A DNA stretch of 64,000 nucleotides from Escherichia phage vB_EcoM_G17 (MK327931.1); one strand, 5' to 3'. Numbered from the stretch's first letter, positions 50,850-54,736 are shown. The notes: generated by a model from the letters alone, not told the origin. Translations and numbers: made by a program.

Positions 50850-50999
50850 TTAAACTTCTTTCGGGTTGCGATAGGTGATAGCGTTCGGGTACATTTGTTT
50901 AATGTTATTCCATGCCTGGTTAACATTATAACCACTTGAGCGAATCAGTTGGTTACTACCGACACCTTGAAACACTACTTCGAATAAGAATTCTTTCAT
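50850..50999 (-). CDS. hypothetical small protein (49 aa)
   Basis: Below ORF-track cutoff; ATG with GAGGTGA SD; ATGA-coupled to upstream small gene. Confidence 0.45.
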   Translation of the reverse strand: MKEFLFEVVFQGVGSNQLIRSSGYNVNQAWNNIKQMYPNAITYRNPKEV

Positions 51000-51169
51000 G
51001 CTTTCACCTCGCTATCTGCTTTACCTTTACGCCAGGACATTACTAATTGTTCGCGTTGCCATAAGTCGAGTGATACAAAAAGTTTTGCGGTATCACTTTT
51101 AGGATACTCGCCAGTAGTACCTAACCGATAAAACAGATCTTTCAGTACTGATAATTCTACTTGAATCAT
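50996..51169 (-). CDS. hypothetical small protein (57 aa)
   Basis: Below ORF-track cutoff; ATG with AGGAG SD. Confidence 0.45.
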   Translation of the reverse strand: MIQVELSVLKDLFYRLGTTGEYPKSDTAKLFVSLDLWQREQLVMSWRKGKADSEVKA

Positions 51170-51258
51170 TTTATTACTCCTGATTGCGTTAATACTTCTA
51201 CTATTGCATGAATGATCATAAGTACAGCTAACACAATAATCATCGGATTCATTTGCAT
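51166..51258 (-). CDS. hypothetical hydrophobic micro-protein (30 aa)
   Basis: ATG with AAGGAG SD; sequence MQMNPMIIVLAVLMIIHAIVEVLTQSGVIK; translationally coupled. Confidence 0.35.
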   Translation of the reverse strand: MQMNPMIIVLAVLMIIHAIVEVLTQSGVIK

Positions 51259-51275
51259 AAGCTGTACTCCTTATA

Positions 51276-51488
51276 TTAATCTTTCAGCCAATGATCTTGA
51301 ATGAATTTTTCACCGTATCCCTGTTTCATGGATTCTAACAGGCGTTCGCGGTGAGCGGCGGCATATTGCTCAGTACTATGCGTTACGCCAGGCTGATAAC
51401 GTGATACCCCATCCGGTCCGATGTATTGTACATCCCACGGTTTTTCGTTAGTATCAGACCATTTACGAACGATTAGTTGACCTTGCAT
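51276..51488 (-). CDS. hypothetical protein
   Basis: ORF track. Confidence 0.65.
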   Translation of the reverse strand: MQGQLIVRKWSDTNEKPWDVQYIGPDGVSRYQPGVTHSTEQYAAAHRERLLESMKQGYGEKFIQDHWLKD

Positions 51489-51505
51489 TTTTCTTTCCTC
51501 TCAGT

Positions 51506-51565
51506 GGGGAGAATCATTTCTCCCCTTCATGTAACTTATTATACAGTACTAGATTATCTTGTCAA
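51506..51565 (-). promoter_or_regulatory. sigma70-like promoter + leader hairpin cassette
   Basis: -35 TTGACA 51560-51565, 16-bp spacer, -10 TATAAT 51538-51543, hairpin GGGGAGAA..TTCTCCCC 51506-51525. Confidence 0.65.
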
Positions 51566-51571
51566 TAGTTT

Positions 51572-51895
51572 TTATTCACCTTGTTTGAATTTAGTTTTCT
51601 CCATTGATTCCATGATTGCAACCAATACGCTGTGGATCTCGCTTAACGCGGAATCACTGAAAGCATTAATGAATAGTCGATCATTCTCGCGAATATTTTT
51701 AATGTACTTTTCAGCAGTAGTTGCGAATTCATTCAACGGTAGATCAAATGCTTTATCCCATGATGGATGGCGTAATTGTAACAGTACTGGATTATCACGA
51801 TCACCAGGGGAAAACGTACCAGTGATGAAACATACGCCCGGAATACTTTCGAACTGGCAACGGACTTCCTTTGTGATAGTAGTATGAATGTACAT
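51572..51895 (-). CDS. hypothetical protein
   Basis: ORF track; GAGGA SD. Confidence 0.65.
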   Translation of the reverse strand: MYIHTTITKEVRCQFESIPGVCFITGTFSPGDRDNPVLLQLRHPSWDKAFDLPLNEFATTAEKYIKNIRENDRLFINAFSDSALSEIHSVLVAIMESMEKTKFKQGE

Positions 51896-51922
51896 TTATT
51901 GTTATCCTCTATTAAATTAATA

Positions 51923-52117
51923 TTACAGTTTATGAATCAATTCTTTATCTAAGCGATAGCGTACATTATTAATAGTAACGGCATTGTTTTTAATGCTACG
52001 CTGTACAGGTCCACCAGCAATAACAAATGTTGCTTTATTACCCCGAACAATGATAGCACTTCCAGGATTACCGAAATCATCTTGTACTAAAATACTTGAT
52101 AAGTTTTCCATTTTCAT
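51923..52117 (-). CDS. hypothetical protein
   Basis: ORF track; AAGAGGAA SD. Confidence 0.6.
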   Translation of the reverse strand: MKMENLSSILVQDDFGNPGSAIIVRGNKATFVIAGGPVQRSIKNNAVTINNVRYRLDKELIHKL

Positions 52118-52129
52118 TTCCTCTTAGTA

Positions 52130-52186
52130 GGGGAAGATGTTTCCCCTTGATGTAAGTACTATAACACTACTGGATAGTACTGTCAA
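52130..52186 (-). promoter_or_regulatory. sigma70-like promoter + leader hairpin cassette
   Basis: -35 TTGACA 52181-52186, 16-bp spacer, -10 TTATAG 52159-52164, hairpin GGGGAA..TTCCCC 52130-52146. Confidence 0.55.
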
Positions 52187-52192
52187 TACTTT

Positions 52193-52450
52193 TTATCTCA
52201 TAGATCTATGCCAACAATTACGCGGGGGACGTTTAAAAGTACTATCATGATCCTCCTGGCAAGTTATGCAGTACTTACATCCCTTAACAGCCTGGCGGCG
52301 ATTCTCAGGGATTTTATCGCCACAGTCGAGGCAATGTATCAGTGATTCTATTTGTGCGTTAATTTGCTTTCTAGCGTGGTTTACGGCGGCCTGAATCACT
52401 GCGTTAATCTCGTCTTGTTCGGCCCCGTCTTTCGCGAATCCTACAGCCAT
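52193..52450 (-). CDS. TraR/DksA-family C4-type zinc finger protein
   Basis: CLDCGDKIPENRRQAVKGCKYCITCQ: two CxxC pairs with conserved spacing and basic helix (ARKQINAQ), as in the TraR/DksA family. Confidence 0.7.
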   Translation of the reverse strand: MAVGFAKDGAEQDEINAVIQAAVNHARKQINAQIESLIHCLDCGDKIPENRRQAVKGCKYCITCQEDHDSTFKRPPRNCWHRSMR

Positions 52451-52647
52451 TATTTTAACCTTTTTCTATCATTAATTAATGCTTTCAGTACTATACTAAT
52501 AACTTGCAATGATTCATCAATGACTATAAAATTATTTTCTTTCATTAGATGATAGTTACCATTGATATTATATTCTAACGAGTACTGTTTACGTTTAATT
52601 TTTGATAATGTTTCTATTTGTTTTTGTACTGATTTCATGCTAATCAT
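52450..52647 (-). CDS. hypothetical protein
   Basis: ORF track; AGGACG SD; 1-nt overlap with downstream gene. Confidence 0.5.
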   Translation of the reverse strand: MISMKSVQKQIETLSKIKRKQYSLEYNINGNYHLMKENNFIVIDESLQVISIVLKALINDRKRLK

Positions 52648-53481: not shown

Positions 53482-53501
53482 TTTGTTTTCTCTCTGTTAG
53501 T

Positions 53502-53561
53502 GGGGAGAAGTTTTTCTCCCCTTGATGTAAACTATTATACAGTACTATAATCTATTGTCAA
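53502..53561 (-). promoter_or_regulatory. sigma70-like promoter + leader hairpin cassette
   Basis: -35 TTGACA 53556-53561, 16-bp spacer, -10 TATAAT 53534-53539, hairpin GGGGAGAA..TTCTCCCC 53502-53521. Confidence 0.65.
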
Positions 53562-53576
53562 ACTATTTTTTTTATA

Positions 53577-53918
53577 TTATTCGAAATCTTCTGGACCGGA
53601 CTGATAATCATCTTCACCGTATGCACTTTCTAACTTCTCGCCAGTGTGGTCATCAGTTAGTGAGTCATCCTCATAGTTCACGTCTACGCCAGTGATGTAA
53701 AACTGGCTATCGTCTGGATCATTGAAATTAATTTTCTGTATGTTTACAATAACTGTATTGATGCCCAGGACACCGCCATCAGCCGTTACAAAGTACTGAT
53801 ATTTTTCACAACCGCCTGAATTGAAACCGTAATTAATTTCGGCCCGACCATCATTTAAACGCAGTGCCTGAGCGATGATTTCATTTTCAAAGTTAGATTG
53901 AGCAATTGAGATAGTCAT
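53577..53918 (-). CDS. hypothetical protein
   Basis: ORF track; acidic C-terminus. Confidence 0.65.
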   Translation of the reverse strand: MTISIAQSNFENEIIAQALRLNDGRAEINYGFNSGGCEKYQYFVTADGGVLGINTVIVNIQKINFNDPDDSQFYITGVDVNYEDDSLTDDHTGEKLESAYGEDDYQSGPEDFE

Positions 53919-53938
53919 GATTTGTTTCCTTATTACCA

Positions 53939-53997
53939 GGGGAAACCGTTTCCCCTTTCGATGTAAAACATTATACGCTTATTGAGATAGTTTGCAA
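53939..53997 (-). promoter_or_regulatory. sigma70-like promoter + leader hairpin cassette
   Basis: -35 TTGCAA 53992-53997, 16-bp spacer, -10 TATAAT 53970-53975, hairpin GGGGAAACCGTTTCCCC 53939-53955. Confidence 0.6.
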
Positions 53998-54041
53998 GTA
54001 CTTTTTAAAAATAGTTTTCAGTACTCAAACATTATACAATA

Positions 54042-54130
54042 GATACACTCCTGCACCCTGTGGGCTAGTGAGCTATCTCTCAATGAATATATAATAGCAA
54101 AATGGCTGACCGAAGTCAACCACTTTTTTC
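54042..54130. repeat. repeated intergenic element copy D (degenerate terminator)
   Basis: Motif GATACACTCCTGCACCCTGTGGGCTAG 54042-54068; degenerate hairpin 54103-54122 plus T-run. Confidence 0.5.
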
Positions 54131-54266
54131 ATTTATTTTTAGCTTTTAGAATCGCCGCCTTTCGTGTCATTCCTTGTTTGATGTACTCCTTTACTTTCGC
54201 TTTTTTAGCGTTTACCTTGTCTGCTTTCGTTTTAGGAGTACTGTAAATTATACCGTTAGGATTCAT
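54129..54266 (-). CDS. hypothetical small basic protein (45 aa)
   Basis: Below ORF-track cutoff; lysine-rich; coupled to next micro-ORF. Confidence 0.4.
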   Translation of the reverse strand: MNPNGIIYSTPKTKADKVNAKKAKVKEYIKQGMTRKAAILKAKNK

Positions 54267-54356
54267 TTAAATCACCATAAAGAATAGATAGGTTACTAAC
54301 AACGCCGCGATCAATGCACCGACCAGGGCCGAACTATAGTAAGCTAATGTTTTCAT
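54267..54356 (-). CDS. hypothetical hydrophobic micro-protein (29 aa)
   Basis: MKTLAYYSSALVGALIAALLVTYLFFMVI; coupled between two small genes. Confidence 0.3.
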   Translation of the reverse strand: MKTLAYYSSALVGALIAALLVTYLFFMVI

Positions 54357-54505
54357 TTTTTAGCCTGAAAATAATGTTTAATTTGTGCGGCGGTCAATGC
54401 ACAATTACGCAGGAAGTTTTCTGTATAACTGCGGCGAGTACTGAAAGAGAATTGACCTTTGCCGTTGCCGATAGTAACATCAAACCGAGCGTTGTATTGT
54501 TTCAT
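54353..54505 (-). CDS. hypothetical small protein (50 aa)
   Basis: Below ORF-track cutoff; ATG with AAGGAG SD directly after promoter cassette. Confidence 0.45.
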   Translation of the reverse strand: MKQYNARFDVTIGNGKGQFSFSTRRSYTENFLRNCALTAAQIKHYFQAKK

Positions 54506-54521
54506 TTTGATTCTCCTTGTA

Positions 54522-54586
54522 TCAGGGGAGAACCATTTCCCCCCCCTCTATGTAAACAATTATACAGTACTGGAAACTAATTGCAA
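54522..54586 (-). promoter_or_regulatory. sigma70-like promoter + leader hairpin cassette
   Basis: -35 TTGCAA 54581-54586, 16-bp spacer, -10 TATAAT 54559-54564, hairpin GGGGAGAACCATTTCCCCC about 54522-54546. Confidence 0.6.
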
Positions 54587-54589
54587 GTA

Positions 54590-54736
54590 CTATTTTTTAG
54601 ATTTACGCAAACTTTCTACCATCTCAGGAGTAAGGCCCGGCGGGTAGGAAACCACTTCATCCACAAAACGCAAAGGGAATACCCCAGCGAAAGGTGAACG
54701 TGCTTTCTTGTTAGTACTCTTTTTTGATGCTTTCAT
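54590..54736 (-). CDS. hypothetical small basic protein (48 aa)
   Basis: Below ORF-track cutoff; ATG with AAGGAA SD. Confidence 0.45.
   Translation of the reverse strand: MKASKKSTNKKARSPFAGVFPLRFVDEVVSYPPGLTPEMVESLRKSKK

Follow-up and report, generated by a model that had tools for sequence, protein, structure and literature searches.

Coupled small genes, two of them for predicted membrane peptides, in the terminal repeat of a Rak2-like jumbo phage

Among described systems, those that invite comparison with the locus considered here include the SPO1 host-takeover module, which this Bacillus phage carries in its terminal redundancy, and the pre-early genes of the T5 terminal repeat; takeover and early timing have been shown by experiment for both. 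Our subject is a 64,000-nucleotide (nt) stretch of DNA from Escherichia phage vB_EcoM_G17 (MK327931.1), called the window below, and in particular seven micro-ORFs (open reading frames encoding 29–57 amino acids, aa) that an original prediction, made from this DNA alone, had placed in two gaps of its ORF track, 50850–51258 and 54129–54736. We consider it probable that these micro-ORFs are genuine small genes, that they form two short operons and one single-gene unit within a direct terminal repeat (DTR), and that the two of them that encode predicted membrane peptides are not lysis genes. Over the 4.7 kb around the micro-ORFs the window matches with 100% identity the sequence of Escherichia phage Sharanji (OR545507.1), a 350-kb Asteriusvirus of the 121Q/PBECO4 group of Rak2-like jumbo phages. 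The Sharanji repeat resembles those of SPO1 and T5 in being dense with tiny genes, in its strong host-type promoters and ribosome-binding sites, and in the presumption that it is expressed first; there is, however, no sequence relationship, and early timing and takeover we only infer for Sharanji.

Closest to the micro-ORFs themselves are hypothetical proteins already deposited for other Asteriusvirus phages, of which, as judged by an amino-acid identity of 72–100% and by the same order and overlaps as in Sharanji, they are direct orthologs (121Q genes 286, 287 and 298–300; phAPEC6 gp508c–509c and gp519c–521c; E9.1 CDS0029–0031 and CDS0045–0047). The differences amount to strain-level variation and to the omission of the 50-, 29- and 45-aa ORFs from the Sharanji record. 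The ORFs cannot be regarded as unknown, since each is annotated in at least one related GenBank record and four of the seven belong to PHROG families, albeit families of no assigned function (37188, 10572, 29913 and 7119).

Two further comparisons come from the wider group. In Klebsiella phage Muenster, three "putative membrane proteins" of 35–42 aa (CPT_Muenster_023, 029 and 036), each with one transmembrane domain and its own ribosome-binding site, lie in a terminal repeat of ~20 kb, and since its curators annotate all three, small membrane peptides are a recognised feature of these repeats; the three have no detectable homology to our 29-aa peptide and are distinct from an unannotated 27-aa ORF of the same phage described below. 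In Pectobacterium phage CBB, RpoD-like promoters and short hypothetical ORFs abound in a region that continues into the repeat, and this region has been interpreted as a set of early host-takeover genes (PMC5259590). Finally, the PeSL (early promoter and stem-loop) cassettes of T4-type phages follow a presence/absence pattern in hyperplastic regions (PMC2839356, PMC4122927). The cassettes of our locus are like them in that a promoter and stem-loop recur beside small variable genes, at the indel boundaries of close relatives, and differ in belonging to the Rak2-like lineage and in having the stem-loop in the 5' untranslated region (UTR), downstream of the promoter.

Seven coding genes, six of them in two predicted operons

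All seven micro-ORFs were reproduced on the minus strand by an ORF listing and translation, which settles the computational confirmation that their coordinates had been said to need. On that strand, which is the coding strand for all genes of the 4.7-kb stretch, operon 1 begins with a promoter that matches the sigma70 consensus at 12 of 12 positions (TTGACA-16-TATAAT, 51538–51565), followed by a 5'-UTR stem-loop read from the sequence as GGGGAGAA-ATGA-TTCTCCCC (51506–51525). Its first gene encodes 70 aa (gp074, phrog_13428, 51276–51488; pN/pS, the ratio of non-synonymous to synonymous polymorphism, 0.15), and there follow the 30-aa hydrophobic peptide MQMNPMIIVLAVLMIIHAIVEVLTQSGVIK (gp073, 51166–51258), the 57-aa gene (gp072, phrog_10572, 50996–51169), which is found in Rak2-like jumbo phages and whose product is predicted to have three helices, and the 49-aa gene (gp071, phrog_37188, 50850–50999), also present in the Alcyoneusvirus of Klebsiella. 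The operon closes with an intrinsic terminator at 50811–50838, a 12-bp hairpin of −19.5 kcal/mol (z = −6.6) followed by UUUGCU. Operon 2 has the same plan: a promoter (TTGCAA-16-TATAAT, 54559–54586), a 5'-UTR stem-loop (~54525–54546), the 50-aa gene (phrog_7119, 54353–54505), the 29-aa hydrophobic peptide MKTLAYYSSALVGALIAALLVTYLFFMVI (54267–54356), the 45-aa lysine-rich protein (phrog_29913, 54129–54266), and a terminator at 54099–54126 made of a 12-bp hairpin with a UUCG loop (−15.9 kcal/mol, z = −5.2) and UUUUGCU. The remaining ORF, for an accessory basic protein of 48 aa (gp083, 54590–54736), is a separate single-gene unit with its own promoter (TTGCAA-16-TATAAT, 54788–54815). Promoter and stem-loop together form a PeSL-like cassette that is repeated ahead of most genes in the region, an equivalent copy of the stem-loop folding at −13.9 kcal/mol.

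The translational coupling that had been proposed for both clusters is borne out at four junctions, of which 30/57, 57/49 and 50/29 are ATGA overlaps of stop and start and 29/45 reads TAAATG; all four are invariant across the 14–15 related loci that carry them. It does not extend to the 48- and 50-aa ORFs, which are split by a full promoter and stem-loop. The start signals are good Shine-Dalgarno (SD) sequences for five ORFs (AAGGAG for the 30- and 50-aa ORFs, AGGAG for the 57-aa, GAGGTG for the 49-aa and GGTGA for the 45-aa ORF) and only a weak AGG for the 29-aa ORF. Because its own SD is weak, translation of the 29-aa ORF is probably dependent on coupling.

As to composition, the two peptides reported as very hydrophobic indeed have one hydrophobic helix each, and their best 19-residue Kyte-Doolittle means (2.67 and 2.69) are the highest among the 271 ATG-initiated ORFs of 25–60 aa in the six frames of the window. 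In the 29-aa peptide the chain stops within the helix (...LFFMVI), and there is no charged C-terminal tail; the 30-aa peptide closes with TQSGVIK, whose one lysine is the last residue. The lysine-rich peptides are likewise as described, with 13 lysine or arginine residues in the 45-aa and 11 in the 48-aa protein.

That all seven micro-ORFs are real protein-coding genes we conclude from a comparison of the orthologous region in 14 further Asteriusvirus genomes, which provided 10–15 genomes for each ORF. Each ORF is intact wherever its DNA occurs, with start, stop and frame kept and all length changes in frame, the exception being CMSTMSU, an UNVERIFIED record with evident frameshifts. The pN/pS ratio lies between 0.10 and 0.39 in the proposed frames and between 0.58 and 4.8 in the shifted frames, which points to purifying selection: 0.10 for the 50-aa ORF (1.53 in the +1 and 2.31 in the +2 frame), 0.16 for the 49-aa (1.66 and 1.17), 0.22 for the 29-aa (2.55 and 0.84), 0.26 for the 48-aa (3.60 and 1.37), 0.27 for the 45-aa (1.56 in both), 0.33 for the 57-aa (1.06 and 1.73) and 0.39 for the 30-aa ORF (0.58 and 4.79). 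Consistently, the pooled variable columns fall 67, 45 and 145 times on the first, second and third codon positions, respectively, an excess at the third.

The terminal repeat and its relatives

A DTR is annotated at 1–21525 in vB_Ec-M-J and aligns to the window from 64000 down to ~43340. The size of the DTR given for Sharanji, 20,668 bp (PMC11895373), agrees with the ~20.7 kb mapped in this way, and the G+C fraction climbs from ~0.31 to ~0.38 near 40–44 kb of the window, which is consistent with this extent. Both ORF clusters therefore lie inside the DTR, 9–13 kb within it by window coordinates and at repeat positions ~9.9–14.0 kb in the vB_Ec-M-J mapping. The last base of the window (64000) pairs with base 1 of vB_Ec-M-J, which is the left physical end of the genome and the start of the DTR; in the Sharanji GenBank record the equivalent position is internal, at about 36445.

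The repeat of vB_Ec-M-J holds 53 annotated small coding sequences (CDS) in 21.5 kb, on a single strand and nearly all hypothetical. In the 8 kb around our locus the minus strand carries 19 sigma70-type promoter matches of at least 10/12, six of them perfect (TTGACA-N16/17-TATAAT), and the promoter-match total of 43 sites compares with 27 ± 4.7 in shuffled sequence. The repeat is thus an array in which some 50 small genes are served by one promoter per gene or pair of genes, and the features expected of an SPO1- or T5-like array, namely a location in the DTR and many tiny genes with host-type promoters and SD sequences, were both found.

Besides Sharanji, 50 further phage records match the 4.7-kb stretch at 77–97%, and their annotation is uneven. 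The suspicion that automated annotation would miss the ORFs was correct for the 50-, 29- and 45-aa genes, which are absent from the Sharanji record, where 53919–54589 is empty; the other four of the seven (gp071, gp072, gp073 and gp083) are annotated there. The three missing genes are annotated in phAPEC6 (gp521c, gp520c and gp519c, respectively), E9.1, JP4, WPEC3 and SD-1_S14. Counted from feature tables, five of the 13 annotated relatives examined include the 29-aa ORF, and six of the 10 records that carry the 30-aa ORF annotate it.

The products differ in how far they reach. The 50-aa protein is the most widespread, with 177 phage records in Asteriusvirus, Alcyoneusvirus, rV5-like and CR3-like phages, among them Klebsiella phages K64-1 and Muenster, ~140 rV5-like phages and CR3-like phages of Cronobacter and Pectobacterium. 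Rak2-like phages that infect Klebsiella, Yersinia, Cronobacter, Pectobacterium, Erwinia and Serratia carry the 57-aa protein, and its gene lies inside the terminal repeat wherever a repeat is annotated. The Muenster homologs are within the PhageTerm-predicted terminal repeat of that phage, and the CBB homolog of the 57-aa protein is in the CBB "redundant repeat". The 49-aa protein extends to Alcyoneusvirus. The 29- and 45-aa proteins were found in Asteriusvirus only, the 29-aa peptide in all genomes of that genus examined and the DNA of operon 2 in 35 of 35 records. No match to the accessory 48-aa gene was seen in 121Q, TH47, PBECO4 or SD-1_S14. In Muenster (MT708547.1, Alcyoneusvirus), an unannotated hydrophobic ORF of 27 aa, MYIPIIIPLAVLLIAAVICEHYHLLGM, with its own SD, stands directly upstream of the 57-aa homolog (positions 5243–5326 of our locus L016, 13742–13825 of the record). 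Its identity to the 30-aa peptide of Sharanji is 44%, and we take it as the likely ortholog, absent from an otherwise carefully curated record.

Between the 70- and 57-aa genes we found the exchange of alternatives expected of PeSL shuffling, with three architectures all bounded by the promoter/stem-loop cassette. Sharanji, 121Q, PBECO4 and others have an SD and the coupled 30-aa ORF; A4 and Turkey5 have the cassette followed by a divergent 29-aa allele, which is only 45–48% identical yet retains MxMNP at its start, AGVI at its end and the hydrophobic core; and TH47, vB_Ec-M-J, WPEC3 and UE-S1 have the cassette alone, without a peptide gene. These three alternatives suggest recombination at the cassettes.

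Predicted functions and alternative readings

According to our model, each operon would be read from its host sigma70-type promoter through the 5' stem-loop to the strong intrinsic terminator, and ribosomes would be handed from cistron to cistron at the ATGA or TAAATG junctions, a hand-over that would be most important for the 29-aa ORF. By analogy with other phages, transcription of the DTR array by the host RNA polymerase would begin as soon as the DNA has entered the cell. We predict that the peptides of 29 and 30 aa cross the inner membrane once, and the remaining products would be small and soluble: two basic peptides, one bundle of three helices and one compact domain of beta strands plus two helices. 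The peptides would appear early and insert into the membrane, and the genes may serve to take over the host, to exclude superinfecting phages or to counter host defences. The view that the peptides are host-interference factors, one of several offered for them originally, is a reasonable inference.

Homology searches add little to this picture. Pfam and PHROG scans of the eight small proteins and ten neighbours returned only function-less PHROGs, a DksA-type zinc finger, DUF7247 and a sub-threshold SAM_SMF hit. The latter concerns the 50-aa protein, whose assignment as an SMF/DprA SAM domain (PF25317) we rejected: the match reaches 20.1 bits (E = 8e-4), below the gathering threshold of 27 bits, and spans profile positions 28–56 of 65, with 12 of 27 family members matching at E ≤ 0.01 (best E 1.3e-5). 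Profile searches of PDB sequences gave no match for the 57-aa family and, for the 50-aa family, only a non-significant one (E ≥ 0.025) to homeodomain helix 3 (LTxxQIKxxF), and in an exhaustive profile search of 1.84 billion representatives the relatives of the 50-aa protein numbered only some 20, small and stand-alone, with no fusion that was informative. The SAM_SMF and homeodomain resemblances hint at a helix-hairpin motif that may bind nucleic acid or protein in the 50-aa family, and at nothing more. The predicted folds are a small beta-sheet followed by two helices, compact, for the 50-aa protein (predicted local distance difference test score, pLDDT, 91) and a three-helix bundle for the 57-aa protein (pLDDT 89.5); in Foldseek searches neither model matched a solved structure at E < 1.

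Several points weigh against the account of genuine early genes in two operons. No functional homology emerged for any product, either in Pfam or in Foldseek comparisons with the PDB (nothing below E = 1), so that the description of these genes as early accessory genes rests on their context. The 30- and 48-aa genes are dispensable in some relatives. The variable columns of the 29-aa ORF, divided 4/2/8 among the codon positions, give but a small signal when this ORF is taken alone. Furthermore, we found no RNA sequencing, ribosome profiling or proteomics for Asteriusvirus early genes in the literature, PMC11895373 included.

The last of the sequence-level points bears on the possibility that some micro-ORFs, and the 29-aa ORF especially, are chance ORFs in a conserved non-coding spacer. 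Coding evidence is indeed thinnest for the 29-aa ORF, because just 14 of its columns vary, many annotators skip these ORFs, and short hydrophobic ORFs do turn up by chance in AT-rich DNA; as 10 of the 271 short ORFs reach a hydropathy of 2.2, hydropathy by itself is no proof of a gene. Nevertheless, the 29-aa ORF is open in 15 of 15 loci with start, stop and overlap conserved, its sole indel is an in-frame deletion of 6 nt, its substitutions are conservative (K/R, T/S, L/F, LV/VI, T/A), its pN/pS is far lower in frame than in either shifted frame, and 6–9 other sequences per gap are clearly coding by the same test, all of which makes a chance origin very improbable. It is less far-fetched, although still improbable, that the 29- and 30-aa ORFs serve mainly as translational couplers or leader ORFs for the gene downstream and that the peptides as such have no function. 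The invariance of the ATGA and TAAATG junctions and the weak SD of the 29-aa ORF would fit this idea, as would the four phages with the cassette alone (TH47, vB_Ec-M-J, WPEC3 and UE-S1), in which promoter, stem-loop and SD drive the 57-aa gene; since the cassette replaces the ORF there, the position of the 30-aa ORF can evidently be filled by an expression signal. Selection, however, acts at the amino-acid level on both peptides (pN/pS 0.22 and 0.39), the hydrophobic character and the end motifs persist at 45–48% identity and in another genus, and A4 and Turkey5 retain the peptide ORF despite the promoter cassette ahead of it.

If the peptides matter as membrane peptides, the question becomes in what capacity. 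Holins are small membrane proteins, and the single strongly hydrophobic helix of each peptide would be compatible with the holin-like or antiholin role that had been suggested; yet the idea that the two are lysis-timing proteins (holin, antiholin or pinholin-like) did not survive inspection of their surroundings and is to our mind extremely unlikely. The peptides stand behind consensus sigma70-type promoters in a terminal-repeat array of early type, no lysis domain was seen in the ten neighbouring proteins scanned (small hypotheticals and the DksA-type zinc finger), and the CDS of the vB_Ec-M-J repeat are all small hypothetical or non-lysis genes. Moreover, 29–30 aa is well under the typical size of a holin, many otherwise lytic relatives lack the 30-aa gene, the 29-aa peptide has no hydrophilic C-terminal tail and the other a single terminal lysine, and neither adjacency to a lysis cassette nor a transmembrane domain joined to a charged, hydrophilic C-terminal domain was found. 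A resemblance to type I toxins of TisB, Ibs or Hok size, which would depolarise the membrane and arrest host metabolism, fits in size and composition (29–30 aa, one helix, few charges; TisB has 29 aa) and in the location of the peptides in a region predicted to be early. Set against it are the lack of a convincing promoter for an antisense RNA, the only candidate being a 9/12 match on the plus strand at 54452–54480, and the failure to find similarity to known toxins in PHROG and Pfam; Rfam gave no hit. We regard a toxin-like action as unlikely, and as a sub-case of early host-directed peptides rather than a true alternative to them.

The main value of the analysis is an annotation fix: the Sharanji record lacks the 50-, 29- and 45-aa genes, and many records of sister phages lack the two membrane peptides of 29 and 30 aa. 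A further result is the picture of the ~20-kb terminal repeat in Rak2-like jumbo phages as an array densely filled with tiny genes that are under purifying selection. Such a repeat is where early takeover and anti-defence factors would be expected, and the peptides and their soluble partners are therefore reasonable candidates for functional screens.

A repeated non-coding unit and Chi sites

Sequence alone yields no new mechanism or principle here, and the more unusual features of the locus are an enriched motif and an enrichment of Chi sites. What remains of each gap is occupied by a non-coding unit that is conserved and lies on the minus strand at 53993–54098, with a second copy at ~50716–50810. 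The first copy runs from a −10 box TGCTATTAT through the core GCCCACAGGGTGC (54053–54065) and GTATCTAT to AGTACTGAAAA, which leads into the next promoter. The general layout, over ~100 nt, is a sigma70-type promoter, 20–27 nt, an invariant core RCCCAYNGGGTGC, GTATCTAT-like and AGTACTGAA motifs, and the promoter of the next gene. The core occurs eight times in the window, where none would be expected by chance (minus strand: 44749–44760, 47496–47507, 50770–50781, 54053–54064 and 60854–60865; plus strand: 58568–58579, 60797–60808 and 62907–62918). In Sharanji, vB_Ec-M-J, Klebsiella phage Muenster and Pectobacterium phage CBB, which represent three genera, we counted 23 copies, 22 of them with a −10-like hexamer upstream. 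A literature search for the core sequence returned nothing relevant.

The unit may give rise to a small early transcript, act as a 5' leader or bind a protein. We dropped the claim of a structured small RNA for lack of covariation and of excess folding energy: RNAalifold on eight copies gave a 7-pair hairpin without compensatory changes, single copies fold no better than shuffles (z ~0), and no Rfam family was matched in the region or in the whole window. A coding role of the core, which reads A-H-R-V in one frame, was rejected as well, because a start codon after the predicted point of transcription initiation is lacking in most copies. Spurious small CDS are nonetheless annotated across the unit in several GenBank records, Muenster_034 being one example.

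Three arrangements of the unit and its promoter deserve mention. In a composite of terminator and promoter, the hairpin of the terminator includes the −35 box (TTGACT) of the promoter that comes next, and the extended −10 element TGCTATTAT follows the U-tract; at least four copies were seen on the minus strand, at 50811–50838 and 54099–54126, the terminators of our two operons, and at 44790–44817 and 47542–47569. On the plus strand, a stand-alone unit at 58510–58655, antisense and between two minus-strand genes, consists of TTGACA-17-CATAAT, ~95 nt with the core, a GGGGAG...CTCCCC hairpin and a T-rich run, and would be the best candidate for a discrete small RNA gene. At ~60768–60892 two motif units overlap with convergent promoters, such that their transcripts would be complementary over ~100 nt; a convergent pair is also present in the distant phage CBB (1300–1440 of locus L018).

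Chi sites (GCTGGTGG) number 11 in the window, against an expectation of 0.41. Ten of them lie in the ~20.7-kb terminal repeat, nine on the minus strand (44695, 44918, 46495, 48394, 50743, 52011, 52724, 56926 and 63396), where ~0.1 would be expected per strand, and one on the plus strand (63408), which leaves an oppositely oriented pair ~600 bp from the outer end of the repeat. The pattern is conserved in vB_Ec-M-J (9 + 2) and would fit a role in shielding the genome ends against RecBCD or in promoting recombination between the repeats.

It is tempting to read these features jointly as an undescribed terminal-repeat architecture, a proposal we put forward tentatively and consider rather doubtful. 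In it, the 30- and 57-aa products would be an old coupled pair, kept from Asteriusvirus to the Alcyoneusvirus of Klebsiella and acting early on the host envelope; the promoter with the terminator-borne −35 box would fire a RCCCAYNGGGTGC unit of ~60–100 nt, and such units would make up a new family in Rak2-like jumbo phages, either of early small RNAs or of regulatory sites; and the co-oriented Chi sites of the repeat would blunt RecBCD at the genome ends.

Two minor observations concern other parts of the repeat. Two paralogous 107-aa genes on the minus strand, at 49577–49900 (phrog_6246) and 55695–56018, have in common the motifs RWTD..GNTYHSC.VS...FTYGY...VKRKKD, which is evidence of duplication inside the terminal repeat. 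At ~63100–63220, in ~1.7 kb of non-coding DNA by the predicted genome terminus, TAGCCGTC/TAGCCAT motifs are iterated at least six times, and this cluster may be a packaging, terminus or replication element.

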